From the sequence record OL960577.1: a stretch of 64,000 nt of DNA; one strand, 5' to 3'. Shown piece after piece: positions 797 through 15,214 of the stretch. A program made the position numbers and the translations under genes. Source of the DNA: Escherichia phage vB_EcoM_SA35RD. Numbering within the stretch: position 1 is the stretch's first letter; the number at the start of each line of letters is the position of its first letter. The notes under the pieces are model-generated. The model was not told where the DNA came from and ran no database searches. It saw only the letters and a list, made by a program, of their open reading frames with translations.

Positions 797-1222
797 TTAG
801 TAAATTGATTTACCATAGTATTTGTACCAAGTCGGACGTTGAGCAATTTTTTCATCTAAGCGTGCTTGACTTATCGCAATGGACGCTTCGGACGGGTCAT
901 AATTATTACGAAATTCGGCAGGGATGTCGGAAATATCCTGGACTGTCGTGTCCTTGATTTTGAAACCACGTTTCAAGCATTCAGCGATTAGCTCGATTTG
1001 ACGTAAACGTAAAAATTCGAGTTTGTCGTAAAAGAATGTTACGTGACCTGTGCCTAAGATAAATGTTGGAGAGATTTTAAAATCCTTTACACGTTTACCG
1101 TTTTGAACATGTTTACGGACTGCACCAAATACGCGTGGTAATTCACGATACTCAGCCATAAGATGTTGGTCGGACAGTTCAGAAACAAGTGTTAAATTGA
1201 TACGAGTCATAATTTCCTCCAA
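797..1222 (-). CDS. denV: endonuclease V, pyrimidine-dimer DNA glycosylase/AP lyase
   Basis: 141 aa; [12 protein letters not shown]...[16 protein letters not shown]...[22 protein letters not shown] is near-identical to T4 endonuclease V as recalled. Confidence 0.9.
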
Positions 1223-1237
1223 GTAGTTGATGAATGT

Positions 1238-1267
1238 ATAGTATCAAAACCCTTGGAGGAAGTAAAC
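1238..1267 (-). promoter_or_regulatory. early promoter cassette upstream of denV, inside a 9-bp inverted repeat
   Basis: -35 GTTTAC (1262..1267), 18 bp, -10 TACTAT (1238..1243); inverted-repeat arms 1215..1223 and 1252..1260. Confidence 0.5.
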
Positions 1268-2069: not shown

Positions 2070-2528
2070 TTATAGGATAGTAGTGAGCACCTTATATAAT
2101 GATTTGCCCATCACATATTCCCATTGAGAAGGTTTAATTAAAGCGAACGCATCAAATTCAGGAATCTGTCGTCCGTCTGGGAATGTATGATAGGAATTAC
2201 AAGCACTGTTTCTGAATTGCTCGTGCTCTACAGGGATGGTATATAGGAACAGATGAATATTCTTATTGTCTGAGTAATGATGTTCACCTAGGTCTTTCAG
2301 GAAGGCAGGGTCATATTGTGTAAACCCAGTTTCTTCTTCGCATTCGCGAATAGCGGCTTCAATAGGAGATTCACCGGGCTCGACACGTCCTTTAGGAATA
2401 TCCCAGCGATGAGCTAAAGAACCTTTAGGACGAGAACCAGTTACACGCCCCATGAATAATTCTTTATCTTCGGTAAGGAAAATAATACCGGCTGATAGTT
2501 CTTTCACTTTATTTTTCTTACTCATCAT
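2070..2528 (-). CDS. nudE: Nudix hydrolase (NudE/e.1-like)
   Basis: 152 aa; Nudix box GRVEPGESPIEAAIRECEEETG; position immediately upstream of e as in T4. Confidence 0.85.
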   Translation of the reverse strand: MMSKKNKVKELSAGIIFLTEDKELFMGRVTGSRPKGSLAHRWDIPKGRVEPGESPIEAAIRECEEETGFTQYDPAFLKDLGEHHYSDNKNIHLFLYTIPVEHEQFRNSACNSYHTFPDGRQIPEFDAFALIKPSQWEYVMGKSLYKVLTTIL

Positions 2529-2754
2529 CTCGGTCCCATGATTTGGCCATTAATTCGGACATAAATTCTTCAATGCGCGTTTCTTTAGATGGACTTTCAC
2601 TATTAGAGACCGCAAGTTTGTAATCTGCAATAGGACAGAACATATCAAGATCCGTATTAAGGTCGTCTTTGATTTTTTCTTCTGACACATCTTTATCGTA
2701 TGTGTACAGATAACTATCACATGATTCTGATTTAATGTAAATTGCTATACTCAT
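2518..2754 (-). CDS. hypothetical small acidic protein
   Basis: ORF; start chosen at ATG 2754 (MSIAIY), which overlaps the stop of the upstream gene as ATGA. Confidence 0.5.
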   Translation of the reverse strand: MSIAIYIKSESCDSYLYTYDKDVSEEKIKDDLNTDLDMFCPIADYKLAVSNSESPSKETRIEEFMSELMAKSWDRDDE

Positions 2755-3242
2755 CTCAAATTCCTGCATTCAGTAATAAAACATTCAACTTCGTTATTCT
2801 TGGCCTTTATCTTGTCTTTACGTTCCTGTAAACTACTTTTAACAAGATTAATAATGATGCCTACAGTACCTCCACCAATTATACCGCCAATTATACTTAC
2901 GATAGCAGATGCTAATAAGATAGCAATAATATCAACAAAACCGAAAGAACTCACCTTAGTACTAAAAAACCATACCGACGGTACAAATATAATCCATCCT
3001 GTTATCCATTGGCACTTATTGAAAAACTTTTCAAGATCAGCTTGAGTTGTTCGTATTACTTCATCGATAGGTTGATATCCATTAATGTATCTGTTCACGA
3101 TAATACCTGCTGGTTTGTCGATTTTAAATTCTTGGCAAATACGTTTCACTAAGTAGGATGGACATCCTGTCCAATCCACTGAATAGTACGAAATACCTTC
3201 ATTGCCGTCGTCAATATTAGACCAATATGTTTTGTTAATCAT
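2751..3242 (-). CDS. small membrane protein, FIxECR-tail family
   Basis: 163 aa; hydrophobic segments WIIFVPSVWFF and IIAILLASAIVSIIGGIIGGGTVGIII; C-terminus ECFITECRNLR. Confidence 0.6.
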   Translation of the reverse strand: MINKTYWSNIDDGNEGISYYSVDWTGCPSYLVKRICQEFKIDKPAGIIVNRYINGYQPIDEVIRTTQADLEKFFNKCQWITGWIIFVPSVWFFSTKVSSFGFVDIIAILLASAIVSIIGGIIGGGTVGIIINLVKSSLQERKDKIKAKNNEVECFITECRNLR

Positions 3243-3928
3243 TACCAGCCTTCCATAGGGAATTCCAGATAAACTTGGGCATTGACGCGAATTTCATTGG
3301 TAATCTTTTTAACTCGGTCTGTATTACGAGATACACGTCCGAACCAACGCCATCCATTACTAATTGCACGAGAACCAGTGTGCCATGTTTGCCAATCAAA
3401 CTGAAGAAGAGTACGGTCTGGAGCTTCCCATTTCTCTAGTTCGCCTTTTTCGATTTTTTCGAGGACTTCTTTGTGCCACTGGCGATAGATAAGTTCGCCA
3501 TCAGGAATCTGACTGAACTCTGCAGTTCCTGTTGCAAAATGAGTAGGACACACATCAGCGTTAACAAGACCAAGAATATGTTCAGACAAATAGCGAGGAT
3601 TGTCATAGTCAGGTTGTCCTGCAGTAATAAAATGTTGACCAACCGGAATATCCGGGCGTGGTACGTCATCATGGTGATAACCTGGGATAGCAGGATACCA
3701 ACCAGGCATCAGCATGTGGACTCGTGAATCAAATACAACCTGGTCGGTGTTCCAATCATCTGGCAAGTTCATAATGAAAGAGCGAGTAATAGGACCGCCG
3801 TTATTATAAGCAAATTCTAAACTACAGTTGAAGAACATAGGCTCGTTCTTGATTTTATCATTAGAAATACCGCCGGCAAAACCACCTACTGCACGAGCTT
3901 GACTATTAAACACTTTAGAACTATTCAT
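3242..3928 (-). CDS. hypothetical protein, 228 aa
   Basis: Long ORF with SD GAGGAAAA; no confidently recognised domain. Confidence 0.6.
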   Translation of the reverse strand: MNSSKVFNSQARAVGGFAGGISNDKIKNEPMFFNCSLEFAYNNGGPITRSFIMNLPDDWNTDQVVFDSRVHMLMPGWYPAIPGYHHDDVPRPDIPVGQHFITAGQPDYDNPRYLSEHILGLVNADVCPTHFATGTAEFSQIPDGELIYRQWHKEVLEKIEKGELEKWEAPDRTLLQFDWQTWHTGSRAISNGWRWFGRVSRNTDRVKKITNEIRVNAQVYLEFPMEGW

Positions 3929-3929
3929 A

Positions 3930-4235
3930 TTATTTTCCTCGACATTCTTTAATGAAATTTTCTAGATTGGTAGATTCAATAGCTTTTTTACGAGCTTCTG
4001 CGTGTTCTTCTTCGGACAATTTACGTTTATAATTGACCCAGACATTATGGTCGAAACCAGTCGTGGCATATAATAACAATGCTCCAACGAATAGCAAAAA
4101 CGGCGATAAGAATACAAAACCAGGAACACCATCCATATCGTAAGCCTTTTGTAATACTGCAACAGAAAGAGTTGCGTAAAAAGGTGATGCAAGTATTGTT
4201 AAAAGACCAATTCGATTGGTTTCTGTTAATTTCAT
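3930..4235 (-). CDS. small membrane protein, FIxECR-tail family
   Basis: 101 aa; two hydrophobic helices; C-terminus ENFIKECRGK; SD GAGGAG; early promoter at 4267..4296. Confidence 0.6.
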   Translation of the reverse strand: MKLTETNRIGLLTILASPFYATLSVAVLQKAYDMDGVPGFVFLSPFLLFVGALLLYATTGFDHNVWVNYKRKLSEEEHAEARKKAIESTNLENFIKECRGK

Positions 4236-4266
4236 AATATTCTCCTCATGTTTTAATAGGACTACT

Positions 4267-4296
4267 ACTATAACATAGTCCTATCAGTTTGTACAC
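4267..4296 (-). promoter_or_regulatory. early promoter cassette with palindrome around the -10 (PeSL-like)
   Basis: -35 GTGTAC, 18 bp, -10 TATAGT; 8-bp inverted repeat ATAGGACT/AGTCCTAT (4257..4264 and 4278..4285). Confidence 0.5.
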
Positions 4297-4497
4297 TTAT
4301 TTTGACATTTCTTCGATGTCACGACGATACCCATCACGAACTTCACGAAGAGCTTCAAGGCCACACATAGGCTCGATACCAGTAATGTGAACTTGATTAA
4401 TCTGATACTCTACATCTTCTAACTGAGCGAAAACATAACGACGTTCTGCTGCACAACCAGGTTTAGCTTTACCGAAACGTTTATTCAAAGTAGTCAT
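4297..4497 (-). CDS. hypothetical small protein
   Basis: Start at ATG 4497 (MTTLNKRFGK) with SD GGAG, downstream of early promoter 4536..4565. Confidence 0.45.
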   Translation of the reverse strand: MTTLNKRFGKAKPGCAAERRYVFAQLEDVEYQINQVHITGIEPMCGLEALREVRDGYRRDIEEMSK

Positions 4498-4535
4498 TTT
4501 TATATCTCCATTCACTCATTTGTTTTGATAGGTCT

Positions 4536-4565
4536 ATAGTATCAACAACTACAGACCTTGTAAAC
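4536..4565 (-). promoter_or_regulatory. early promoter cassette (PeSL-like)
   Basis: -35 GTTTAC, 18 bp, -10 TACTAT; flanking inverted repeat AGGTCT/AGACCT. Confidence 0.5.
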
Positions 4566-4577
4566 TGTTTTGTGAAA

Positions 4578-5534
4578 TTATTTGAAAGGTTTTACCATAT
4601 GAAAGTTTTGTTTGAAACGCTTGACGTAATCGTCGTGTCCTAAGCTTTGGTACATACTTACTACTTTGCTATAATTTTCCCAAGCGAACTCACGGAACCA
4701 TCCTGATGTGATTGATGTACAGACCTTTTCAAGGGCCATCATAAAACTATCACGTGGATGGATTTTAAAGTCGTTAGGAATCTGAGAACGTTCTAATGCT
4801 AGTACACATGATTCTTCATATACACCGGCCAATTTGACCATTTCTGGTAATGATTCGAACTTCTCGCGTGAGGTCATGACTTCAGAACCATCTTTCATGT
4901 AAAATGTATAAGCCGGACGGTCTGTTAGTGCAATAGCTTCGTGAATAGTATCATGGTCATATGTATAGATGTCATCTTTAAAGAACGCACTTTTAGAAGT
5001 GTCAAGAACAGGGTGAGCATAGTTCAAGGTTTCTTTCTGGCGTTTCAGCATAATTTCAGTAAGTTCATCGTTCAGTTTAACACCTTTACCACGAAGATAC
5101 TGAATATGGTTCATAGTCTTTAAAAAGAATGGATTATTTTTCTTGAAACGATGAGACATCTTAATTGCAAGACATATCTCAGGAGTTGCCCAGTAAAACC
5201 CGTTCAAACGGTCTTTAGTCAAATTTTTCTTGGCGTATTTTAAAAGGTCATAAGAAGACGTGAAATCTTCAGGAGTGAGTTCACCGACTAATTCACGGAC
5301 ACTAGTGATTGCCGGAACAATATATGCTTCAAAATGAGTTTCGCGTCCATTATGGAAGCATTTGAAAACTTGGACATCAGGGTTATCTTGGTGAACATAT
5401 ACACCCATCATTTGATTTTTGAATGCATTCCAAGAACCTTGGTCCGCAATAAAGTCCCAATCACTATTTTTAATAGCGCTAGAATCAATAAGACCGTGAT
5501 AGTGAAGTGCACGAGAACCAATAACTAACATCAT
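4578..5534 (-). CDS. hypothetical protein, possible nucleotidyltransferase fold
   Basis: 318 aa; N-terminal LVIGSRALHYHG...DWDF resembles the GS...DxD motif of Pol-beta-type nucleotidyltransferases (ANT-like); fold call is tentative. Confidence 0.65.
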   Translation of the reverse strand: MMLVIGSRALHYHGLIDSSAIKNSDWDFIADQGSWNAFKNQMMGVYVHQDNPDVQVFKCFHNGRETHFEAYIVPAITSVRELVGELTPEDFTSSYDLLKYAKKNLTKDRLNGFYWATPEICLAIKMSHRFKKNNPFFLKTMNHIQYLRGKGVKLNDELTEIMLKRQKETLNYAHPVLDTSKSAFFKDDIYTYDHDTIHEAIALTDRPAYTFYMKDGSEVMTSREKFESLPEMVKLAGVYEESCVLALERSQIPNDFKIHPRDSFMMALEKVCTSITSGWFREFAWENYSKVVSMYQSLGHDDYVKRFKQNFHMVKPFK

Positions 5535-5562
5535 AATATTTTCCTCGGATTAATTCATTAAC

Positions 5563-5802
5563 TTAAATTTCACGACATGCGATATTATATTCATCCCAGA
5601 GGTCATCATGTGAAGCCTCTACCAATGGAACGATTGTACCGTTTATGTCTTCATTATAAGGGCAAATTGTACAGTGCGCATCTTCGAATCGGATGCCTTT
5701 GTGTTCAGATTTTTTATAACGCATATCGAATATCTTTGCAAACTTTTCACGAGTAATGGTTTTACCAACCACTTTGGTTCCGATACTTTCGTAATAAATC
5801 AT
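5563..5802 (-). CDS. hypothetical small protein
   Basis: Start at ATG 5802 (MIYYES), which has SD GGAG; ends ...NIACREI; early promoter at 5831..5860. Confidence 0.5.
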   Translation of the reverse strand: MIYYESIGTKVVGKTITREKFAKIFDMRYKKSEHKGIRFEDAHCTICPYNEDINGTIVPLVEASHDDLWDEYNIACREI

Positions 5803-5830
5803 TGTGGACTCCATTTGTTTTGATAGGACT

Positions 5831-5860
5831 ACTATAACATAGCCCTATCTTGTTGTAAAC
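5831..5860 (-). promoter_or_regulatory. early promoter cassette (PeSL-like)
   Basis: -35 GTTTAC, 18 bp, -10 TATAGT; inverted repeat GATAGGGCT/AGTCCTATC around the -10. Confidence 0.5.
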
Positions 5861-5864
5861 TGTT

Positions 5865-6062
5865 TTAGCAAGAATAACTAGATGATACCCAGCCTTGAAC
5901 AGTGATACTATTGTGGGATAATGAGATCGCGTCCTGGAGATTCAGACCTGCGTTATCTTCAATCCATAATGTAACTTCTTCGCGTTCTTCTGTTGCAATT
6001 TGGAACAGGTTTTCCAGAGCAGCTACTGCCGTACGTACAGCACAATCTAATTCACGAGACAT
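5865..6062 (-). CDS. small protein, GWVSSS..C-tail family
   Basis: 65 aa; C-terminus QGWVSSSYSC; SD AAGGAA. Confidence 0.55.
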   Translation of the reverse strand: MSRELDCAVRTAVAALENLFQIATEEREEVTLWIEDNAGLNLQDAISLSHNSITVQGWVSSSYSC

Positions 6063-6071
6063 ATTGTTTCC

Positions 6072-6344
6072 TTAGCAAGTGTGAGAAGATGCGACCCAAC
6101 CACCAGTTTCGAGGCTCAGGTTGTAGTCGTATTGGTAAACGTCAGCCCATTCAGCATAGCCATTTTTTGTACAACGTTCAAGATCGGCTTTAAGATGTCC
6201 GGGTGAATGATAGGTTCCACCCATACCGTAAGCTGGATACAAGTCGAATGTTGTGTTTTGTTTATCAGCAATTTCTTTGGCAGCCTCAATAGCTGCATAG
6301 ATTTTTGCTACAGCTTCAGCCAGTTCGGTTTGTTCTTTAGACAT
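6072..6344 (-). CDS. small protein, GWVSSS..C-tail family
   Basis: 90 aa; C-terminus GGWVASSHTC; shares KEIAD...YG.GGTYH core with the next paralog. Confidence 0.6.
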   Translation of the reverse strand: MSKEQTELAEAVAKIYAAIEAAKEIADKQNTTFDLYPAYGMGGTYHSPGHLKADLERCTKNGYAEWADVYQYDYNLSLETGGWVASSHTC

Positions 6345-6353
6345 AATGATTCC

Positions 6354-6659
6354 TTAGCACAACGCAGAAGACGAAACCCAAGCACCTTCAGTAATAACGT
6401 AACCATTACCTTCACGCTTAACATCGCCACCATTATTTTCAATTTCATCTTTCATCCACTGGGATACGATTTCACCCTTAGGATAATAAGTACGACCGCT
6501 ACCATAATCACCTACAGAAAATGATACGGCATATTGGTCTGCGATCTTTGTTGCTTCTTCTTCGATACGTTCAGCTTGATTCAGAAGTTTATAAATTGCA
6601 TCTGAAGCGGATTTGGCATTATTAAACTCTGGTACTTTAATTTCAATAATCTTACTCAT
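6354..6659 (-). CDS. small protein, GWVSSS..C-tail family
   Basis: 101 aa; C-terminus GAWVSSSALC; ATG overlaps the upstream stop (ATGA). Confidence 0.6.
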   Translation of the reverse strand: MSKIIEIKVPEFNNAKSASDAIYKLLNQAERIEEEATKIADQYAVSFSVGDYGSGRTYYPKGEIVSQWMKDEIENNGGDVKREGNGYVITEGAWVSSSALC

Positions 6660-7015
6660 TTTCTACATTCCTTAATAAAGTTTTCGATTGTTTCATTTTC
6701 ACGTCTAGCTAGGAGTTCATTATAACTAATCATTTGAGAAGCGTAAACCTTTTTATTTTTCTTGTTATGGTTTATAAAATCGTAGTAAAAATAGACTACA
6801 GTACAAAATGATGCGATGGATGCAAAGGCTTGGGTATACCGTAAGTCCTGCCATTGGTCTGTGAATCCACCAGTGTTCCCTATAAATCCTAACACAACGC
6901 CGTCAATAAGAAATCCAACTAATCCAAAGGCAAATCCCATGCCAATACTCATAATAAAAATTAGAATGTTCTCACCAAGAGAAGGCCATACGGTTAAGAG
7001 TTGAGGCTTTTGCAT
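6656..7015 (-). CDS. small membrane protein, FIxECR-tail family
   Basis: 119 aa; hydrophobic helices; C-terminus IENFIKECRK. Confidence 0.6.
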   Translation of the reverse strand: MQKPQLLTVWPSLGENILIFIMSIGMGFAFGLVGFLIDGVVLGFIGNTGGFTDQWQDLRYTQAFASIASFCTVVYFYYDFINHNKKNKKVYASQMISYNELLARRENETIENFIKECRK

Positions 7016-7389
7016 CTTATTTCCTTAACGAATTCCATAGCTTCTTCATATTCATACTTTTTAATAGCTTCATCATACTGAGCTTGGGCTTTTGCGCACT
7101 GAACTTTCCATTCTCTTAATCGGGCTCTGTGATGACGGCCTTGGTGCCAATATCCCACCCAATTAATAGGCATTAATAAAAACGGTACAATAAGTGGTGC
7201 GACGAACATTAATGAAAATGCTGCATCAGACGATATAACTTCACTAGAATCTAAAACAGCTCCTATAATCATAAAGATTAAAAATGCTAAAGCTAAAATA
7301 GGGCCAAATAGTACTTCATTTGGGATTAATTTACGCTTGTATTCATACGCCCAGGGCTTACTTGGCATGTATAGGGTTGGCTTTGACAT
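6994..7389 (-). CDS. small membrane protein, FIxECR-like tail
   Basis: Start at ATG 7389 (MSKPTLY) directly after the conserved GAATGTAGAGAAT junction motif; two hydrophobic helices; tail MEFVKEIRCK. Confidence 0.55.
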   Translation of the reverse strand: MSKPTLYMPSKPWAYEYKRKLIPNEVLFGPILALAFLIFMIIGAVLDSSEVISSDAAFSLMFVAPLIVPFLLMPINWVGYWHQGRHHRARLREWKVQCAKAQAQYDEAIKKYEYEEAMEFVKEIRCKSLNS

Positions 7390-7954
7390 ATTCTCTACAT
7401 TCCATAATAAATTGCTCAAGGATTAAATTGTTAGTGAAATTAGGACTAACAACCATAGTTTCATAAAGCGCATCAATAGCACTTAAAGCATCAACTCTTT
7501 TAAGCAAAGGCTTGCCTTCATACATAGTTTCAGAATCGACGATTAAAGTGAAGTAGTATTTTTTATTATTGGCCAGAACTTCTGTATCAATATAAAACAT
7601 GTTAGACCTTAAAAGCTTGTCTCTAAAGCCTACGTAATCATCTGAACGTTCACTGATATATTCCCATTCGGTGTTTAAACAACAAACAGACCACGTAGGA
7701 GCAACGAAATCAGTGAATCTAATATCATGGTCTGCAACTAGTTTAGCAATAGCTCCGATATCATGAATCATAATACCTGGGGCTAATAAAGATTTTCGGT
7801 TATTTGCATATTCAGTTGTCTCATAAGAAGACGACCAGTACCATTTACGTCCAGTTGCAACATATCGTAATGAATCAACTAAAGACGTAGGTGGATTTAC
7901 CTTATCTCGGAACTCTTCGAACATTGAGTCAATATCATTATTTTGGTTTCGCAT
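7358..7954 (-). CDS. hypothetical protein with FIxECR motif near C-terminus
   Basis: Start at ATG 7954 with SD AAGGAG; ...EQFIMECREYVKANPIHAK; 3' end overlaps the next gene by 32 nt. Confidence 0.6.
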   Translation of the reverse strand: MRNQNNDIDSMFEEFRDKVNPPTSLVDSLRYVATGRKWYWSSSYETTEYANNRKSLLAPGIMIHDIGAIAKLVADHDIRFTDFVAPTWSVCCLNTEWEYISERSDDYVGFRDKLLRSNMFYIDTEVLANNKKYYFTLIVDSETMYEGKPLLKRVDALSAIDALYETMVVSPNFTNNLILEQFIMECREYVKANPIHAK

Positions 7955-7973
7955 GTTAACTCCTTTATTATCC

Positions 7974-7995
7974 AAAAGGAGGACCGGGGTCCTCC
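7974..7995 (-). terminator. rho-independent terminator
   Basis: GGAGGAC-CGGG-GTCCTCC hairpin followed by TTTT on the minus strand, just after the stop of the 8004..8597 gene. Confidence 0.6.
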
Positions 7996-8003
7996 GTATT
8001 ATT

Positions 8004-8597
8004 TTATTTCAAAGAGTTAATATATTCTTGTACATCAGCAGAAGTGGTTTCGACACCTGCTGGAGTGCCATTGAACGTTTCAACCCGAGTCAGAGTGTCT
8101 TCGATATCAACCTTAGTCAGTGCAGCGATTTCAATTACATCATCGGCCGTAGAGATACCAAGGGCATTAGCTGCTCGAGTTTCACGAATGTATTCGAGTT
8201 TGATTGCCAGATTCTGACGAGCATCATCAAGTTCAACCACCTTACGAGCAATTTCAATTCGCATAGCGGCATACCCGTCAGCTTTTGTATTAAGTTGTTC
8301 GGCAGTTCGACGATACAGAAGACCAAGCTTAGCATGCATGGTAACATCTTGTCCTTCAGCCAGGAGCTTACGAATTTCACGTTCCTTAGAAGCGGCTTGC
8401 TTGTTCTTTTCAATAACAAGTTCGCGAATACGTTTTTCTTCATTAATAGATTTAACAGAAGCCGTTTTTAGTTCTTTGATTTGGGTAATCAACTTATCTG
8501 CAGCTGCGTTATACTGTTCTTCGACAGTCAGATTTTTAGCCATAGCAGTACCCAGTTTAGTGCGAATGAATTCAACAAGTTTCTTCAGTGTGTTCAT
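8004..8597 (-). CDS. coiled-coil protein, PspA/IM30-like (tentative)
   Basis: 197 aa; heptad-rich and Ala/Glu/Lys/Arg-rich; layout resembles PspA as recalled; early promoter at 8639..8668; terminator at 7974..7995. Confidence 0.6.
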
Positions 8598-8638
8598 ATT
8601 ATTACCTTTCAATTGGTGGTTTATTATCCAACGAGAGC

Positions 8639-8668
8639 ATTATACTCTGCTCTCAAGAGTTTGTACAC
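8639..8668 (-). promoter_or_regulatory. early promoter cassette (PeSL-like)
   Basis: -35 GTGTAC, 18 bp, -10 TATAAT; inverted repeat GAGAGC/GCTCTC (8633..8638 and 8649..8654). Confidence 0.55.
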
Positions 8669-8917
8669 TTATTTGTACGAATTAATAATCTCTTCCATTT
8701 TATCCAGAACATGGATATCGATTATACGAGGAAGTGCCGAAAGATTAGAACCGTCGAAAGATTTAAGGTCTTCCAAAATAATATTTTCAATGGCCTTTAA
8801 AGCTTCCGCAGATTCTGATGCAGAATTAAATTCAGGAATTTCTCCAAAAAGACGTAAGAATGAACCAAAGTATTCTGCGGCGATTTCTTTAGCTTGTTCG
8901 ATATCAGACTTAAACAT
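8669..8917 (-). CDS. hypothetical small acidic protein
   Basis: Start at ATG 8917 (MFKSDIEQ), chosen because the promoter -10 at 8946..8951 lies inside the longer ORF. Confidence 0.5.
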   Translation of the reverse strand: MFKSDIEQAKEIAAEYFGSFLRLFGEIPEFNSASESAEALKAIENIILEDLKSFDGSNLSALPRIIDIHVLDKMEEIINSYK

Positions 8918-8945
8918 TTTGTTTTCCTCATTTGTTGGTGGAGTA

Positions 8946-8975
8946 ATCATATCACCATCCTTGGCGTTTGTACAT
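8946..8975 (-). promoter_or_regulatory. early promoter candidate (weaker match)
   Basis: -35 ATGTAC, 18 bp, -10 TATGAT. Confidence 0.35.
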
Positions 8976-9202
8976 TATTTTTTAATCAAGTTGACATAAA
9001 ATTCTGCATCTTCAGGGTGCATGCCTTCGCAGTATTCTTCAACCATGAACTTCTTAACAGCTTCATAAGGACCACTCAGATTAAGCTCAGTTGTCCAGAA
9101 CTTGGAATCTTGGACTGAATCGATATGAACTTCAGGGTGTCGGTTGCGAATAACTTCTTCGGTGTATTCATAATCAACGACATCAATACTAACTTTAGCC
9201 AT
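8975..9202 (-). CDS. hypothetical small protein
   Basis: 75 aa ORF; SD GAGGAAAA; promoter at 9231..9260. Confidence 0.55.
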   Translation of the reverse strand: MAKVSIDVVDYEYTEEVIRNRHPEVHIDSVQDSKFWTTELNLSGPYEAVKKFMVEEYCEGMHPEDAEFYVNLIKK

Positions 9203-9230
9203 TTTATTTTCCTCTTGATTTGATGTGATT

Positions 9231-9260
9231 ACTATAACATAAACTTACTTAGATGTAAAT
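9231..9260 (-). promoter_or_regulatory. early promoter candidate
   Basis: -35 ATTTAC, 18 bp, -10 TATAGT. Confidence 0.4.
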
Positions 9261-9413
9261 TATTTCAACGTCACCTTTAGCTGCTTTATAACCTTCAGCC
9301 CAAGATACAACAGAGTTTTTATCCGAGGATTCAAATTCAGGCATTGGACTTTCACCAATATTCACACAGTATGTTTCTTCATTTTCATCGAACCAAATAA
9401 TTAAAGTAGTCAT
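9249..9413 (-). CDS. hypothetical small protein (54 aa, absent from the ORF track)
   Basis: Own translation MTTLIIWFDENEETYCVNIGESPMPEFESSDKNSVVSWAEGYKAAKGDVEIIYI; SD AGAGGAG; promoter at 9444..9473. Confidence 0.45.
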   Translation of the reverse strand: MTTLIIWFDENEETYCVNIGESPMPEFESSDKNSVVSWAEGYKAAKGDVEIIYI

Positions 9414-9443
9414 TTTGTTTACTCCTCTGTAGTTGATAAGTCT

Positions 9444-9473
9444 ATAGTATCACCATCCTTGGTGCTTGTACAT
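9444..9473 (-). promoter_or_regulatory. early promoter cassette, part of the 47-bp module shared with 45531..45577
   Basis: -35 ATGTAC, 18 bp, -10 TACTAT; block 9407..9453 is identical to 45531..45577. Confidence 0.5.
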
Positions 9474-9480
9474 CATTATT

Positions 9481-9786
9481 TTATTTTTTCCAACTCAACA
9501 ACTTGTAATGTCCTTCATTCGTACGTGGTTTATCCCAAGAAATACTAATATATGATTCGCTGTCAATAGAAGTCGCCGGGTTTTTCTCTACCGTAAGACC
9601 TTCACTTTCCAGCCATTCAATAGTATTTGCGCATAAATCGGAAGAACACCTCATCGGGAACCGGCAAGATTTTTCACCTTTAGATGCTGCATCGTACATC
9701 TTTTCCAAAATACGCTTTTGCACGTTTTTAAAAATAGTTTCAGCAGATTCTTCAGATTTTTTATTCAGTTCAGTGTAAAGACTCAT
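9481..9786 (-). CDS. hypothetical small protein
   Basis: 101 aa; promoter at 9815..9843; several Cys residues. Confidence 0.55.
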   Translation of the reverse strand: MSLYTELNKKSEESAETIFKNVQKRILEKMYDAASKGEKSCRFPMRCSSDLCANTIEWLESEGLTVEKNPATSIDSESYISISWDKPRTNEGHYKLLSWKK

Positions 9787-9814
9787 AACATTTTCCTCTA
9801 TGGTTGATAAGTCT

Positions 9815-9843
9815 ATAGTATCATGTCCTTAGAAGAAGTAAAC
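9815..9843 (-). promoter_or_regulatory. early promoter cassette
   Basis: -35 GTTTAC, 17 bp, -10 TACTAT; downstream TAGACTTATCAAC core shared with 9444 and 45568. Confidence 0.5.
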
Positions 9844-9876
9844 ATCTTTATGAAATATTTTTATGCCCTAGATACC

Positions 9877-9903
9877 AAAAGGCCCCAACCATAAGGAAGG
9901 GGC
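9877..9903 (-). terminator. rho-independent terminator
   Basis: GGCCCC/GGGGC stem followed by TTTT on the minus strand, after the 9910..10374 gene. Confidence 0.55.
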
Positions 9904-9909
9904 ATTCTA

Positions 9910-10374
9910 TTATTTAATTTGTTTAGCAGACCAGATACGGTCTTTAATAAGTTTTTGGATATCTTCAACATACTCAAGGCTATGAGCGTGAGGATTATCT
10001 TTGAAGCTATGTGCTCGTGCCAGTTTCTGGCCTTCTGTTTTGATTACTAAAAGCTCTTTAAGAATTGCTTCATACTTAGAAATAATTCCTTTGGCGATAT
10101 TTTTTTCTTGAGCTGCTTTAGGGTCTGTTTTTGGCGCAGGTGCTTTACCTGTAGCTTTCTGGAACAATTCACCTGATGCAGCTAGGCTTTTAAAAACTCG
10201 GCTAACAGTATTAGCATTAGTAAAACCTTCGGCTTTAAAATCTCTAATAAAACGGAAACGTTCTTCATCAGAGGCGTCTTTGTAAGAATATTTACCTGCT
10301 TGAATTGCTGCAATCGCAGCGGCTTTTACATCTGAACTAGATTGTTCAGTCAAAAATTCAGCGTATGATTTCAT
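9910..10374 (-). CDS. internal-protein-like (CTS-bearing) basic protein, 154 aa
   Basis: Starts MKSYAEFLTE (CTS-like); Lys/Ala-rich; flanked by rho-independent terminators at 9877..9903 and 10419..10447. Confidence 0.6.
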   Translation of the reverse strand: MKSYAEFLTEQSSSDVKAAAIAAIQAGKYSYKDASDEERFRFIRDFKAEGFTNANTVSRVFKSLAASGELFQKATGKAPAPKTDPKAAQEKNIAKGIISKYEAILKELLVIKTEGQKLARAHSFKDNPHAHSLEYVEDIQKLIKDRIWSAKQIK

Positions 10375-10418
10375 GTTGCTTTTCCTAAGTTAATTAACTT
10401 ATCTATTTATTATTATGC

Positions 10419-10447
10419 CAAAAAGCCCCGACCTTTCGGAAGGGGCT
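10419..10447 (-). terminator. rho-independent terminator closing the tRNA/structured-RNA transcription unit
   Basis: AGCCCC-loop-GGGGCT hairpin followed by TTTTT on the minus strand. Confidence 0.6.
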
Positions 10448-10454
10448 AAGCCTT

Positions 10455-10750
10455 GCGGCAACCTTGTCGGGGTTTCCACCTACTAAGGCAAGTGTTTGTA
10501 CGAAACGCCGGGATTCGAACCCGGTTATCAAGTAGTTGACGCTACTCAATATTTTTAAAAGGCCATATCTCGACCATATCCGAACGTTCCGTCAAAAACG
10601 CTACTCGGCTTACGGCAAAGATATTTCCTCGAATCGATAATTCGGTGCGCCGTTTCTGCTGTGATGTAAGGGGATATTAACAAATCGTAAAGATTTATTA
10701 AGACCAGTCCTTACTCAGGGAACATCAGTCCGACGACTTACCGGTAGCGA
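10455..10750 (-). ncRNA. candidate small stable RNA region (T4 rnaC/rnaD-like position), tRNA-like T-arm at 10508..10524
   Basis: About 300 bp without a credible ORF between the 10760 gene and the terminator at 10419..10447; contains CCGGG-TTCGAAT-CCCGG plus a 7-bp acceptor-like strand, but I could not complete a cloverleaf. Confidence 0.3.
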
Positions 10751-10759
10751 CCCGGCTTC

Positions 10760-11104
10760 TTATTTTGGCATATCATCAATTTGCTCTCGACGCCGACGCC
10801 ATAGATTAATCGCTTCATTAACACATTCGGCGTTTGGTATATGACGGCAATAATATAATGATTCGCGTTTCTGGAACCGATGTTGCAATGGAATTTCGTT
10901 TAAAAGGTCTTTACGGTCAAAGTATTCAAAACTAGTTAACCCAGAACGATTTTTAATGAACTTCCAATGTCCAAATTCATTTTGAACATAGATGTAATCG
11001 GCATGCTGATACAGCAAATTAATCAATCGATGAGAAATAACTGTATCATATTCGTTAAAATAAAACGTTAAATCATGAACTACCAGATAAATATTGCCTT
11101 TCAT
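10760..11104 (-). CDS. hypothetical protein between the tRNAs and the structured-RNA region
   Basis: Start at ATG 11104 (MKGNIYLVVHDL) with SD GAGGAAAA; the longer 11152 start would overlap tRNA-Arg. Confidence 0.45.
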   Translation of the reverse strand: MKGNIYLVVHDLTFYFNEYDTVISHRLINLLYQHADYIYVQNEFGHWKFIKNRSGLTSFEYFDRKDLLNEIPLQHRFQKRESLYYCRHIPNAECVNEAINLWRRRREQIDDMPK

Positions 11105-11122
11105 ATTTTCCTCACTTGAAGT

Positions 11123-11199
<77 letters not shown>

Positions 11200-11205
11200 A
11201 ATATA

Positions 11206-11279
11206 TGACCCAGACCAGATTCGAACTGGTAACCTTTCCCTTATGAGGGGACTGCTGCTAACCATTGAGCTACAGGGCC
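11206..11279 (-). tRNA. tRNA with anticodon CAU (Ile2 or Met type), no encoded CCA
   Basis: Manual fold: acceptor GGCCCTG/CTGGGTC (one U-U mismatch), anticodon loop CTCATAA, T-arm ACCAG-TTCGAAT-CTGGT; D-stem only 3 bp, so slightly irregular. Confidence 0.6.
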
Positions 11280-11341
11280 TAAATAACTTTCTATTATGAA
11301 AGGCACTTTAGAGCACCTTTGGTAATAGAGGGTATGAATTA

Positions 11342-11366
11342 ATAATATCACATTATTCTTAAAGCA
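11342..11366 (-). promoter_or_regulatory. candidate MotA-dependent middle promoter upstream of the tRNA genes
   Basis: Minus-strand MotA box TGCTTTA (11360..11366), 12 bp, -10 TATTAT. Confidence 0.35.
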
Positions 11367-11874
11367 AATCAATCATTTTAACAGTCGGCAAAACGATTTC
11401 TTCTTCAATATAAGCGAATTCAACACGTTCAACTACACGCAAGAAATCATAGTCGTAGTATTCAGAAGCATAGCCAAGAATATCAATAAGGCCTTTGGAT
11501 ACCTCATCACCTTTCACAAAGAACAGGTCGAATACACGGGCTTCGTCTTCTTCAGATTTATCGCCAAGGTCAACTTCAATACCAAAGACCTTTTTAATGA
11601 ATTCCGGCTGGAGCTGGTCAGAGAACAGTCCTTCAACCAGATATTCGTAGATAATAAGCGAGCAACGACCGAATGGCGTATTACCACAGTAACGTTCGGC
11701 TTTAGTGCTGGAATGACGACTCTTAAATTTCTTCAAGAGATATTTAAACTGTTGGAGCTCATGCTCTTCTACACCAAATAATGTTTTGGTTTTATAGTTG
11801 TCACCGTCATTTTCCCAAGTAGTGACATCAATTACGTAACCCTTAGGAATTGTACTGCCTAAACAAATATTCAT
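11359..11874 (-). CDS. hypothetical protein, 171 aa
   Basis: ORF upstream of the tRNA pair; acidic; no recognised motif. Confidence 0.6.
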   Translation of the reverse strand: MNICLGSTIPKGYVIDVTTWENDGDNYKTKTLFGVEEHELQQFKYLLKKFKSRHSSTKAERYCGNTPFGRCSLIIYEYLVEGLFSDQLQPEFIKKVFGIEVDLGDKSEEDEARVFDLFFVKGDEVSKGLIDILGYASEYYDYDFLRVVERVEFAYIEEEIVLPTVKMIDLL

Positions 11875-11878
11875 TTAC

Positions 11879-12169
11879 TCACCTTACCATATTAATGTAA
11901 TTATATTCAATGCAACGCAATTTCAAAGGATTCTTGAAAATATCATATTCAAGAGGGCCTTTTTCTGTTTCAATAAAGAAATCAAAGTTAACTGTGTTAA
12001 ATTTATCATCTTCACATAGTAATTTAACCTGTGAAGATGAACGGTCGATATAAACCTTTTCAACCTCAAAGTTAGTCAGAATACCGTAGTCATCGACTAG
12101 TGCTTTAGCTGCACGTTGATCGCTTTCATATCCATTCTCAATGGACGATACTTTAGCATAAAGAATCAT
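11879..12169 (-). CDS. hypothetical protein, 96 aa
   Basis: ORF tightly packed with neighbours. Confidence 0.55.
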   Translation of the reverse strand: MILYAKVSSIENGYESDQRAAKALVDDYGILTNFEVEKVYIDRSSSQVKLLCEDDKFNTVNFDFFIETEKGPLEYDIFKNPLKLRCIEYNYINMVR

Positions 12170-12528
12170 GAATGTTCCACCACTTCAAAAGTATGTGCAC
12201 TGACAATCTGGTACCAGTCAAAATTTTCTTCAGCATTTTTGTAGATTTCACGAAGAGCTTCAACAGTTTTTCCTGTAGCAACAAGGTCGTCAATACCACC
12301 AAGAGGATAACAGTCATAACCAGCAAACAGAAGGAAATTAATAGTTTCTGTAGGTTCTTGATGCAGTGTACCATTGTCATCGACTACTTCAAAGAACATA
12401 TAACCAGGCGATTTAGATTTAATCCAAGCCCATGCTTGAGCTGCTGAATCAAATGGTTTGCGTATCAAACGACAATCAGGATCTTTAGAAGGATTTGCTT
12501 CAAAATCCGCATATACGTGATATTTCAT
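12166..12528 (-). CDS. hypothetical protein, 120 aa
   Basis: Start at ATG 12528 (MKYHVYADFE), abutting the upstream stop. Confidence 0.5.
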   Translation of the reverse strand: MKYHVYADFEANPSKDPDCRLIRKPFDSAAQAWAWIKSKSPGYMFFEVVDDNGTLHQEPTETINFLLFAGYDCYPLGGIDDLVATGKTVEALREIYKNAEENFDWYQIVSAHTFEVVEHS

Positions 12529-12529
12529 T

Positions 12530-12736
12530 TTACTCACCTTTTGCAATTTTATCCATAACAATAGCGATTAAACCGATTAGAAATGCTACTACCAATGAGA
12601 TAGAATTTTCGGTTGTTGTCAGTAGTCCGCAAATGAATCCTACAAACATCGAAAAACTAAAAGCCATTGAAGCAATTACTACAGCAACATTACGAATCAG
12701 TTCAGCGCGTTTCATTTTATTTCTCCATTTACTCAT
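12530..12736 (-). CDS. small membrane protein, 68 aa
   Basis: Basic N-terminus then VAVVIASMAFSFSMFVGFICGLL and LVVAFLIGLIAIVM helices; promoter at 12754..12783. Confidence 0.55.
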   Translation of the reverse strand: MSKWRNKMKRAELIRNVAVVIASMAFSFSMFVGFICGLLTTTENSISLVVAFLIGLIAIVMDKIAKGE

Positions 12737-12753
12737 TTTGTTTTGATAGGACT

Positions 12754-12783
12754 ACTATAACATAGTCCTATCGTGTTGTAAAC
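12754..12783 (-). promoter_or_regulatory. early promoter cassette (PeSL-like)
   Basis: -35 GTTTAC, 18 bp, -10 TATAGT; inverted repeat GATAGGACT/AGTCCTATC (12745..12753 and 12764..12772). Confidence 0.5.
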
Positions 12784-12786
12784 TAC

Positions 12787-13074
12787 TTACAGAAGAGTTT
12801 TTGCAATAATTTTAAGCTGAGCTACAGAAATGTGCTTAGTTTTAAACAGTGCAGTCTCTTCAGCCGGAGAGATAACAATAGTAGCGCCATCTTTCTTAGC
12901 AGACCATCCATCCCCTAAGTAAACAGTACCTTTTACTTCTTCGCCGTCAACCAGACTAATCATTGGTTTACCCTCACGTCCTTTATTTGCTTTAATAACT
13001 TCGGAAGTAAGGGTTGCTTCGGTTAGAGTAGAAACGTTAGCATCAGGTGATATAAATTCTTTATAGGTTTTCAT
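12787..13074 (-). CDS. ipI: internal protein I-like (CTS-bearing), 95 aa
   Basis: Starts MKTYKEFIS; sits immediately downstream of 57B as ipI does in T4; promoter at 13109..13138. Confidence 0.6.
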   Translation of the reverse strand: MKTYKEFISPDANVSTLTEATLTSEVIKANKGREGKPMISLVDGEEVKGTVYLGDGWSAKKDGATIVISPAEETALFKTKHISVAQLKIIAKTLL

Positions 13075-13108
13075 TTTATTTCCTTGAGGTCGTTTATTTG
13101 ATAGGATG

Positions 13109-13138
13109 ATAGTAACACGTCATCATCCTTATGTAAAC
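13109..13138 (-). promoter_or_regulatory. early promoter cassette (PeSL-like) upstream of the ipI-like gene
   Basis: -35 GTTTAC, 18 bp, -10 TACTAT; inverted repeat GGATGAT/ATCATCC. Confidence 0.5.
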
Positions 13139-13151
13139 TGTTTTGTGAAAA

Positions 13152-13837
<686 letters not shown>

Positions 13838-13841
13838 TTTA

Positions 13842-14576
13842 TTACCTTAAGATTGTTTCAATTTTAGAATAAAGCTCTTCTAAAGAGCCGTCGTTTGTAA
13901 TAACTAAATCGCCTTCTTCAATAGGCAACCCAGCTTCTGTAATATGTTTATCGGTGGATTCCGTACCAGAGCGAACCACATGAATAACTGTAGCACCCAT
14001 CGCTCTAGCGGTTTCCATTTCATGGACTTGGCGTGTATCGGTTACAACATAGTAATCGAAATCACTTCCAATATAATCCATATAATTTAATGCAAAAAGT
14101 TTAACCCAATACATACGGTCAAATAAATTAACGACAACATCCGTACCGAGGGCTTGCATAAGACGGCGGATTGACCATGTGTCGTTGATATTATTTATAG
14201 CTTCACGCAGGGCTTCATATGGTTTAATATCTAGATATGAATATCCACCTTCTAAGGATGATAATACTTTAACATTATTAATTGGTAAATATTGACTTTG
14301 TAAATAAATTAGCGCTTCTTCCATTAATTCAATAACATCCAACTTATTGATATTTAATGGCGTTTCACGGTCGTATCCAACACCTTCAAAGTATTCATAT
14401 TTCAACTCAGTGAATACATCAGGGTTTTCAGCATGTTTACGTCCCCAGGCTATTGCTAGAGCGTCTTTAATCGGATATGCCAATTGGTATTTTACGGATT
14501 TAAAGTTTGAATTGATGTAATCAGCAGTAGTGTCTTTACCACTACGTTTGATGCCACTTAAAAAGATTAGCTCCAT
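13842..14576 (-). CDS. 1: deoxynucleoside monophosphate kinase
   Basis: 244 aa; IFLSGIKRSGKDTTADYI P-loop; ...RRLMQALGTD...RMYWVKLFAL...HEM..ARAMGATVIHVVR closely matches T4 gp1. Confidence 0.95.
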   Translation of the reverse strand: MELIFLSGIKRSGKDTTADYINSNFKSVKYQLAYPIKDALAIAWGRKHAENPDVFTELKYEYFEGVGYDRETPLNINKLDVIELMEEALIYLQSQYLPINNVKVLSSLEGGYSYLDIKPYEALREAINNINDTWSIRRLMQALGTDVVVNLFDRMYWVKLFALNYMDYIGSDFDYYVVTDTRQVHEMETARAMGATVIHVVRSGTESTDKHITEAGLPIEEGDLVITNDGSLEELYSKIETILR

Positions 14577-14629
14577 AGGTTTTCCTCATATAATTTATGA
14601 GTGATTATAACATACGGAGCTAGAAGCGA

Positions 14630-15214
14630 TTAACGCAAGGAAGGGTGTCTAGAAATGGATTTAGATTCGGCTGCCTGACGTGGTTGTTGAGATACAATGA
14701 CTTCACCATCTTTTTCTATCGTCATATACGCATAGTGAATAGTTGCTACGCACGTAACAGCAGGGTCAGAGTCTTCAGTGTAACTAAATTCAATTTCACT
14801 CAAATCAGAAATCCATGGTTTATAGAAATTTGCCGTCAAAACGACTTCAGTCTTATTGTTGTTTAAAATGTGCAAAGTAACAAACTCAGGACCATCGGAG
14901 TGGGCCGTATTATGTCCGGTTATATAGTTATTAGTGCTGAGCATCCATTTATACATGTTCATCCAGGACGTCATGTCTTCATCAACTATAAATCGTACAA
15001 CAAAAGGGTCATATTCAAATGTGGTGCCTGCACGCATTGCACGTCCTAACCCCATTGTGCCTGTCACAGTTTCAACAACAGGAATTCTCACACCTGGCAA
15101 TGGAGCCGTTTGGGCATTGAGCACAAAACCCGAAGTTCGTGTACTATCTGGGATATCCACAACAAAGTTTGTTATATTTGTTTGGTTAAAAATCTGTCTC
15201 GCTGGACGAGTCAT
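14630..15214 (-). CDS. 3: tail completion / sheath stabiliser gp3 (assigned by position)
   Basis: ATG at 15214 with SD GAGG (the track's 15220 start is GTG); lies between genes 1 and 2 as in T4. Confidence 0.65.
   Translation of the reverse strand: MTRPARQIFNQTNITNFVVDIPDSTRTSGFVLNAQTAPLPGVRIPVVETVTGTMGLGRAMRAGTTFEYDPFVVRFIVDEDMTSWMNMYKWMLSTNNYITGHNTAHSDGPEFVTLHILNNNKTEVVLTANFYKPWISDLSEIEFSYTEDSDPAVTCVATIHYAYMTIEKDGEVIVSQQPRQAAESKSISRHPSLR

Follow-up and report, generated by a model that had tools for sequence, protein, structure and literature searches.

Locus and comparison set

We analysed a stretch of 64,000 nucleotides from Escherichia phage vB_EcoM_SA35RD (OL960577.1), hereafter the window, in which an earlier sequence-only reading had picked out a recurrent promoter with an inverted repeat between positions 4257 and 13138 and had likened it to the promoter early stem-loop (PeSL) cassettes of T4-type phages. 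Positions 4000-13400 were matched by 849 phage records, and the best matches, at 96-97% identity over 94-97% of the query, were RB69-like Mosigvirus phages such as O157 typing phage 3, APCEc01 and ATK47. Judged by these similarities, the window comes from a Mosigvirus, an RB69-like T4-type phage, and covers its variable e–tRNA–ipI region. The minus strand carries every gene of interval 4257-13138, and the gene order, read against annotated RB69 and T4 records, comprises e.x genes, frd.3, rnaC, tRNA-Arg/Met, tRNA.2-.4, ipI and 57B. The interval belongs to the classical hyperplastic regions known in T-even genomes and contains many hypothetical genes.

The comparison set consisted of the same region from ten Mosigviruses and T4, together with T4-like loci from IMG/VR. 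The latter were found with the exact pattern GTTTAC-N18-TAYWRT-N6-ATCAA, and only loci on T4-like contigs were kept; most of the IMG/VR matches listed were single chance hits on unrelated contigs. Loci were pooled with the relatives only if a Shine-Dalgarno sequence (SD) and an ATG lay downstream, and the figures given below for this pool cover the matches listed.

The sites of the interval are listed here, each named by the upstream end of its -35 box. Hairpins are given as 5' arm / 3' arm with their minimum free energy (MFE, in kcal/mol) and the z-score against dinucleotide shuffles; breakpoints are ends of homology with relatives.

13097..13144, minus strand: cassette 13138, before the ipI-like gene (ATG 13074); -35 GTTTAC 13133-13138, -10 TACTAT 13109-13114; hairpin 13103-13129, AGGATGATG / TATCATCCT, MFE -10.1, z -3.3; breakpoints 13147 and 13052.
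12742..12789, minus strand: cassette 12783, past the ipI stop codon (12787); -35 12778-12783, -10 TATAGT 12754-12759; hairpin 12745-12772, GATAGGACTAT / GTAGTCCTATC, MFE -16.6, z -6.9.
9803..9849, minus strand: predicted hairpin-less early promoter 9843; -35 9838-9843, a 17-nt spacer in the frame of the sequence-only reading, -10 TACTAT 9815-9820; intrinsic terminator upstream at about 9872-9903; breakpoint 9849 in five relatives; spacer TTCTTCTA able to pair weakly with the SD TAGAGGAA (duplex -11.6).
9432..9479, minus strand: predicted early promoter 9473; -35 ATGTAC 9468-9473, -10 TACTAT 9444-9449; 5-bp spacer hairpin CACCA-AGGA-TGGTG, MFE -6.2, not significant; shares a 62-nt direct repeat (family D4) with 8975.
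9219..9266, minus strand: predicted hairpin-less early promoter 9260; -35 ATTTAC 9255-9260, -10 TATAGT 9231-9236; repeat family D1.
8934..8981, minus strand: predicted early promoter 8975; -35 ATGTAC 8970-8975, -10 TATGAT 8946-8951; spacer hairpin CGCCA-AGGA-TGGTG; upstream boundary of the window-specific gene 8669-8950, breakpoint 8966 in 10/10 relatives.
8627..8674, minus strand: cassette 8668; -35 GTGTAC 8663-8668, -10 TATAAT 8639-8644; hairpin 8632-8655, TGAGAGCA / TGCTCTCG, MFE -11.9, z -2.6; downstream boundary of gene 8669-8950, breakpoint 8674 in 10/10 relatives.
6707..6748, minus strand: promoter-like match 6748 within the e.3-like open reading frame (ORF); no hairpin and no SD/ATG downstream.
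5819..5866, minus strand: cassette 5860; -35 5855-5860, -10 TATAGT 5831-5836; hairpin 5822-5849, GATAGGGCTAT / GTAGTCCTATC, MFE -16.0, z -6.4.
4524..4571, minus strand: cassette 4565; -35 4560-4565, -10 TACTAT 4536-4541; hairpin 4530-4558, AGGTCTGTAGT / ACTATAGACCT with one G:U, MFE -15.5, z -5.2; upstream boundary of the mobile 72-aa gene 4297-4515, breakpoint 4559; same cassette in Tequatrovirus Geo.
4252..4302, minus strand: cassette 4296; -35 GTGTAC 4291-4296, -10 TATAGT 4267-4272; hairpin 4254-4286, GATAGGACTAT / GTAGTCCTATT, MFE -14.5, z -4.4; downstream boundary of gene 4297-4515, breakpoint 4296.

A recurrent early-promoter motif between small genes

The motif RTKTAC-N18-TAYWRT had 15 matches in the 64-kb window, all on the minus (gene) strand, where shuffled sequences led us to expect 0.69 and never gave more than 4. 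The recurrent promoter motif is thus real and far above chance. The count of at least 14 sites claimed for the interval was not reproduced, because positions 4257-13138 hold ten exact sites (nine with N18 and one, 9843, with N17), or eleven when the near-match 8975, whose -10 TATGAT has one mismatch, is included. Two more one-mismatch matches, 12951 and 9649, sit within ORFs and are probably chance. The spacer of 18 bp (17 at one site) described earlier holds in the frame then chosen, in which 9843 has 17, and the figure arises from the framing of the hexamer; the canonical frame TTTACA gives 17. As described for PeSLs, the sites concentrate in a hyperplastic region: 9 of the 15 exact N18 sites (10/16 with 9843) fall in 9 kb of the window.

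An SD and an ATG lie directly downstream of 9/10 exact sites and of 8975, the remaining site, 6748, being intragenic. At eight sites (13138, 12783, 9473, 8975, 8668, 5860, 4565 and 4296), a stop codon precedes the -35 box by 0-14 nt and an ATG follows 30-50 nt past the -10; at 9260, the upstream stop codon is within the spacer. The PeSL order of stop codon, then SD and ATG on the same strand, was therefore found, with 6748 as the exception. The perfect match at 6748 is kept in all relatives, and in LF82-7 a 250-bp deletion has one end at its -35 box; the status of this match as a promoter is uncertain.

The sites also have the sequence of PeSL promoters, namely an early sigma-70-type sequence of the T-even form TTTACW-N17-TAYWAT with an AT-rich stretch upstream, and TGn precedes the -10 in 9/10 sites. 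A review describes T4 early promoters as 'UP/-35/TGn/-10' promoters, and the same features are seen here. These features suggest that the sites act as promoters.

Six cassettes carry a hairpin that overlaps the -10 element

A strong hairpin was present at exactly six sites: 13138, 12783, 8668, 5860, 4565 and 4296. The stems have 8-12 pairs including G:U, with MFE of -10.1 to -16.6 kcal/mol and z of -2.6 to -6.9. The 5' arm lies within the spacer, and the 3' arm consists of the last 1-5 bases of the -10 and the next 6-9 bases, reaching about +1. Folding thus bore out the earlier estimate of six or more inverted repeats, and all four arm pairs then quoted are present. The -10, which had been placed in the loop, is partly there; its last 1-5 bases belong to the stem. 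Hairpins overlapping the -10 are a PeSL feature, and these six cassettes have it.

Sites 9843, 9260 and 6748 showed no hairpin around the -10 and are therefore plain early promoters, not full PeSLs, in sequence terms. Sites 9473 and 8975 have a small, weak 5-bp hairpin that lies inside the spacer only. Cassettes 12783, 5860 and 4296 are paralogous copies (repeat families D1/D2), so that the window contains four independent arm families. In cassette 4296, the loop holds a 3-nt AGT duplication (within 4254-4272, minus strand) (TATAGT-AGT-AGTCCTAT), present in 0/10 relatives, which enlarges the loop and shifts the 3' arm 3 nt from the -10.

We then considered that the inverted repeats might be functionless, a by-product of promoter preferences (AGG in the spacer, CCT before +1) and of the copying of one cassette. 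The paralogy of 12783, 5860 and 4296 fits this idea, as do the motif YCCTATC shared by many 3' arms and the lack of a hairpin at most early promoters. When spacers were swapped among 17 window sites, complementarity proved cassette-specific (p = 0.0005-0.0025). Since exchanging the spacers abolishes pairing, the complementarity is not a side effect of the promoter consensus: swapped spacers retain the preferences, yet pairing is far weaker. Stems of 9-13 pairs also reach well past AGG/CCT, unrelated arms occur in the same geometry in distant T4-like phages, and double changes preserve the pairing. This explanation is thus highly improbable.

Arms vary in relatives while pairing is kept

The earlier observation that arms differ while pairing is kept holds both within the window and at orthologous sites of relatives, where the hairpin is retained in the same geometry with different arms. 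In the window, the stem upstream of ipI is AGGATGAT/ATCATCCT; T4 has GATGAGGTA/TACCTCATC there. The stem before trna.4 varies by phage between GATAGGACTA, GATAGGGTA and AGGGT. Among 142 non-redundant T4-like cassette clusters, 20% had a spacer-to-downstream duplex of -14 kcal/mol or lower, compared with 1.9% with swapped spacers.

A single consensus structure for all cassettes was tried and rejected, as the 5' arm slides, giving registers i+j = 44, 45, 46 and 51; covariation was therefore counted within the dominant register only. Among 21 distinct cassettes in that register, which had been preselected for a stem there, 10/13 pairs showed changes on both sides. In the same alignment, 86% of cells were paired, against 31-57% with the partner slid, and 0/500 shuffles reached the observed covariation.

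Cassettes coincide with the boundaries of exchanged genes

The sequence-only reading had proposed comparing cassette positions in related genomes for module boundaries. We compared positions 2500-15000 with ten Mosigviruses by BLAST and read the ends of the aligned segments by hand. The breakpoints of insertions, deletions and replacements cluster at cassettes: of roughly 30 distinct breakpoints, 11-12 lay no more than 10 nt from a cassette, and cassettes make up about 5% of the sequence. PeSL-like boundaries were seen at 4296/4559, 8674/8966, 9849, 12726-12785 and 13147.

Gene 4297-4515 (72 aa), between cassettes 4565 and 4296, is absent from five relatives, which instead have one chimeric cassette joined at the -35 box. 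Gene 8669-8950 (93 aa), between 8975 and 8668, is absent from 10/10 relatives; these likewise have a single chimeric cassette in its place, and their junction is at TGTACAAAC. Only six phages have the gene at 99-100% identity (RPN187, AV112, AV113, TH58, JN02 and ECCR664); weak partial matches to it were seen in Klebsiella T4-like phages. At cassette 12783, extra internal-protein genes are inserted in ATK47, O157tp3 and LF82-7.

The unit of cassette, 72-aa gene and cassette is also present at 97% identity, with both hairpins intact, in Tequatrovirus vB_Eco_Geo, where it lies between nrdC-like genes about 14 kb from the orthologous region. As the surrounding genomes are only about 80% identical, this points to a recent transfer. 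More widely, the gene and its cassettes were found at 95-97% identity in the Tequatroviruses Geo, slur14, Ozark and phiD1, between nrdC-like 'thioredoxin' genes; copies of the minus-strand module 4297-4565 are at 780-1260 in fetched sequence L132 and at 780-1300 in L133. In phiD1, a terminator and a hairpin-less promoter stand in place of the upstream cassette, and homology resumes at TATCAAAACAAATGAG.

The crossovers map to the conserved -35 and leader segments, not to the stems. As they fall there, and also at hairpin-less cassettes, recombination appears to use the promoter repeats rather than the stems.

The structure favours the sense strand

The sense fold was more stable than the antisense fold in 6/6 hairpins; for cassette 5860, the values were -16.0 and -8.9. 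With stems scored without favouring either wobble type, the internal non-Watson-Crick positions comprised 14 G:T/T:G and 2 A:C/C:A. A hand recount that left out pairs involving the invariant T of the -10 gave 10 to 2 (binomial p about 0.04). In cassette 5860, one such G:U pair is conserved in 10/10 Mosigvirus relatives. Furthermore, the arms are unrelated between cassettes, which rules out a common DNA-binding protein. The advantage of the sense fold, the G:U bias and the diversity of the arms together indicate that the structure most likely acts on the sense strand, most simply as RNA. Of the two modes of action originally offered, these results favour an RNA hairpin in read-through transcripts over a DNA-level site.

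The palindromes could instead act on DNA, as the operator of a dimeric regulator, as a cruciform, or as a single-strand DNA hairpin targeted by recombination or a nuclease. The dyad does cover the TGn/-10 region, where a repressor would act, and breakpoints do cluster at cassettes. Mosig (1998) is cited as having suggested a sequence-specific recombination protein for GGGC/GCCC repeats, and a hairpin in single-stranded DNA of the sense strand is compatible with the strand bias. However, the window alone has four unrelated arm families, with many more in relatives, which no single protein could read, and an excess of G:T over A:C of 14:2 (10:2 filtered) is unexpected for a double-strand palindrome. 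The crossovers also lie at the -35 box and leader instead of the stems, and occur at stem-less cassettes. We consider action on DNA very unlikely. Cruciform and operator readings in particular were rejected on the diversity of the arms and the bias of G:T over A:C.

The hairpins lack the signature of intrinsic terminators

Another explanation is that the hairpins are canonical terminators or attenuators, which would stop upstream transcription just before the next promoter fires. They stand at cistron ends, and in RB49 the stem-loop of PeSL211/210 lowered lacZ expression like rrnB T1 (PMC2839356). An intrinsic terminator is a G+C-rich hairpin followed by a U run, and this combination was not found at the six. 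Their stems are AT-rich, with -10 to -17 kcal/mol, and no U tract follows. A terminator scan returned 11 terminator-like sites with 0/6 hairpins among them, yet it recovered the real terminators 7978-7995 and 10426-10441. The lack of a T run means that the six are not canonical terminators. Stems of 8-13 pairs are also too short for RNase III, making processing by this enzyme unlikely.

A natural comparison is offered by the 72-aa gene. In phiD1, a canonical terminator and a hairpin-less promoter precede it, whereas the copies in Geo and the window have a hairpin-promoter upstream and lack a terminator, which hints at functional equivalence of hairpin and terminator. A tendency of hairpins and upstream terminators to exclude each other points the same way, although it was not significant (p = 0.17). 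On balance, we regard canonical termination as unlikely, although clearly less so than action on DNA.

The intrinsic terminators at 9872-9903 and 10415-10446 are alike (GCCCC…GGGGCCTTTTGG; family D11, 81% identical) and flank gene 9910-10374. Five or six relatives have an unrelated 627-bp gene in place of this gene, and the breakpoints lie at about 9849 and 10413-10420. Like the promoter cassettes, repeated terminators may serve as recombination boundaries.

A second class of spacer pairs with the Shine-Dalgarno sequence

Outside the flagged interval, we found a related arrangement with a different pairing partner.

1208..1267, minus strand: predicted early promoter; -35 1262-1267, -10 1238-1243, next ATG 1208-1210.

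Its spacer TTCCTCCAAG (1252-1261) pairs with the SD CTTGGAGGAA (1214-1223), with a fold of -19.1 and a duplex of -20.0, and this pairing is conserved in RB69. T4 has spacer/SD pairs of the same kind, CCTCTTGAC/GTTAAGAGG before regB and CTCCTGTAG/CTACAGGAG before ipII. In the fetched sequences, such promoters are at 2798 and 5414 of T4 (L011) and at 2921 of RB69 (L010). Among 43 strong spacer duplexes in the T4-like sequences, the partner was the -10/+1 region in 20 (class I) and the SD of the next gene in 19 (class II). Masking of the SD, as at T4 e, soc and 49, is predicted at 1208-1267 and not at the six cassettes, where the 3' arm ends 7-14 nt past the -10, short of an SD that begins at +15 to +31. 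In class II, read-through RNA alone would have its ribosome site masked.

These two classes allow a broader, tentative proposal, which we think somewhat less likely to be right than wrong: the spacer of an early promoter may encode an 'anti-sequence', making RNA from upstream fold differently from the promoter's own RNA, in which case the stem-loops would be neither terminators nor recombination signals. If so, class II would restrict the translation of each small early gene to RNA from that gene's own promoter, and class I would cap the upstream message. In the literature, we did not find such an 'anti-sequence' as a widespread property of early promoters; the known examples, e, soc, 49 and I-TevI, concern promoters of the late and middle types.

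Neighbouring features

Rfam recognised only tRNA-Arg (11123-11199) and tRNA-Met (11206-11279), and no Rfam family matched the cassettes. In ATK47 and T4, the counterpart of positions 10430-10760 (minus strand) is annotated as the rnaC (species 1 RNA) region; in the window, this stretch had no Rfam match at E <= 0.1. At 5865-6659 (minus strand), three small tandem ORFs of 65, 90 and 101 aa have similar ends, W-V-(S/A)-S-S-x-x-C and stop, and share a repeated junction (family D7, 6057-6104 and 6339-6386). They look like tandem paralogues joined without promoters.

Interpretation

We read the sites as PeSL-type cassettes of a T-even-like phage, in which the hairpin would punctuate read-through RNA and the promoter repeats would mediate the exchange of small genes. 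We put the probability of this reading at about 75%. Each cassette would be a strong sigma-70 early promoter, built from an A-rich stretch, a -35 of (G)TTTAC(A), a canonical 17-bp spacer mostly ending in TGn and a -10 of TAYWRT, and would fill the few bases that separate one small gene's stop codon from the SD and ATG of the next. In six cassettes, two variable promoter segments are complementary: one is the upstream portion of the spacer, and the other runs from the end of the -10 as far as about +1/+3. By sigma-70 geometry, the cassette's own transcript would start at or past the 3' arm, probably about 7 nt beyond the -10, where the A of the conserved ATCAA stands. With a start within or past that arm, the hairpin would form only in read-through RNA from an upstream promoter. 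In this RNA, it would be the 3' end structure of the upstream cistron and would punctuate the message by attenuating or pausing the polymerase, by shielding the upstream message from 3' exonucleases, or both. Such a hairpin would use the only bases left unconstrained by a promoter that takes up the entire intergenic space, the one place that a gene-dense genome offers for it. The conserved parts outside the stem (A-rich stretch, -35, -10 and ATCAA leader) are short dispersed repeats, at which homologous recombination could insert, delete or replace the flanked small genes. From what is observed, namely the promoter motif, the hairpins, their compensatory variation, the strand bias and the association with breakpoints, we infer promoter activity, the start site and the role of the hairpin.

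Several points weigh against this reading. Only six of about eleven sites have the hairpin, which is therefore not needed for promoter function or recombination, and breakpoints are also found at the hairpin-less sites 8975 and 9843. The strand-bias count is small. Because the cassettes had been preselected for a stem in the dominant register, the covariation count is confirmatory and not independent. No T run follows any of the six stems, which are followed by ATCAAAACAAA (…CCTATCAAAACAAA), and the published terminator role, for which the experimental evidence comes from a single G/C-rich RB49 stem, is doubtful for the cassettes here. Mutual exclusion with upstream canonical terminators had the expected direction (1/11 against 42/131) and fell short of significance at the p value given above. 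Finally, a literature search for T4 start-site or 3'-end maps gave nothing usable.

If the reading holds, the cassettes would explain why each small accessory gene of T4-type phages has a strong early promoter of its own, and how whole units of promoter and gene come and go and pass from one locus or genus to another. This is relevant to the evolution of host range and to the annotation or engineering of therapeutic phages. What goes beyond the published work is a quantitative check made on an RB69-like genome, evidence for action on the sense strand, most likely as RNA, the finding that the stems lack a terminator U tract, and the observation that a variant of this architecture that masks the SD is common.

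Comparison with known systems

Arbiol et al. (2010) defined the PeSL as an AT-rich stretch, an early promoter plus a stem-loop, followed by SD and ATG; the stem is mostly between the -35 and -10 or overlaps the -10, G-T pairs are tolerated, and PeSLs stand at indel boundaries in hyperplastic regions (PMC2839356). The proposed likeness to PeSLs is supported, as every sequence-level defining feature was found in the six cassettes, with the caveat that the number of sites had been overstated. The cassettes share with the PeSLs of RB49 and phi1 the order of parts from stop codon to ATG, G-T pairs in the stems, a place in hyperplastic regions near small genes of unknown function, and indels or replacements bounded by cassettes. 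The RB49 elements differ in having near-perfect TTGACA-N17-TATAAT promoters and G/C-rich (polyG/polyC) stems, whereas the promoters here are GTTTAC(A) and the stems AT-rich and variable. In RB49, the stem-loop of PeSL211/210 cut lacZ expression about as much as rrnB T1, and terminator activity and circular excision products (mini-circles) were shown for RB49 and phi1 only (PMC2839356). Arbiol et al. term the T-even elements analogues of RB49 PeSLs, not homologues (PMC2839356).

Close counterparts are also known from T4 and PST. The T-even elements of the internal-protein locus (Repoila 1994), as summarised in PMC2839356, have T4 early promoters and weaker, AT-rich, variable stems, and Comeau et al. 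(2014) give the T4/PST promoter consensus as TTTACW-N17-TAYWAT (PMC4122927). The T4/PST PeSLs and internal-protein-locus elements agree with the window in consensus, in variable stems of the AGNA/TCNT type and in the neighbourhood of ipI. The T4 orthologues of the window cassettes have hairpins in the same geometry. The PST figure legend places stems 'just upstream of the promoter' (PMC4122927), whereas in the window the spacer contains the 5' arm and the 3' arm overlaps the -10. We found no PeSL catalogue for Mosigvirus (the RB69 group) in the literature, and there may be none in print.

The T4 genes e, soc, 49 and I-TevI have inhibitory RNA hairpins with a promoter within the 5' strand (Uzan & Miller 2010, PMC3014915). 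As in the cassettes, the promoter is in the region of the 5' arm and the structure belongs only to longer transcripts from upstream. They differ in having a late or middle promoter and a helix that hides the SD/AUG, whereas the six cassettes have an early promoter and an SD 15-25 nt outside the helix. An SD hidden in the manner of these T4 genes was found only at 1208-1267 and, weakly, at 9843.

Intercistronic hairpins that stabilise messages are also known from bacterial operons, such as the REP elements in malE-malF. Like these, the cassettes would end a cistron of a polycistronic RNA, on its 3' side, with a stem-loop that lacks a U tract, and a stabilising role of this kind is the one proposed here; they differ in that the hairpin here is interleaved with a promoter.

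Because published PeSLs share both the anatomy and the behaviour described here, the feature is already known, and the original reading of the sites is supported. The cassettes are nothing new in kind, and a catalogue for the RB69 group is a matter of inventory.

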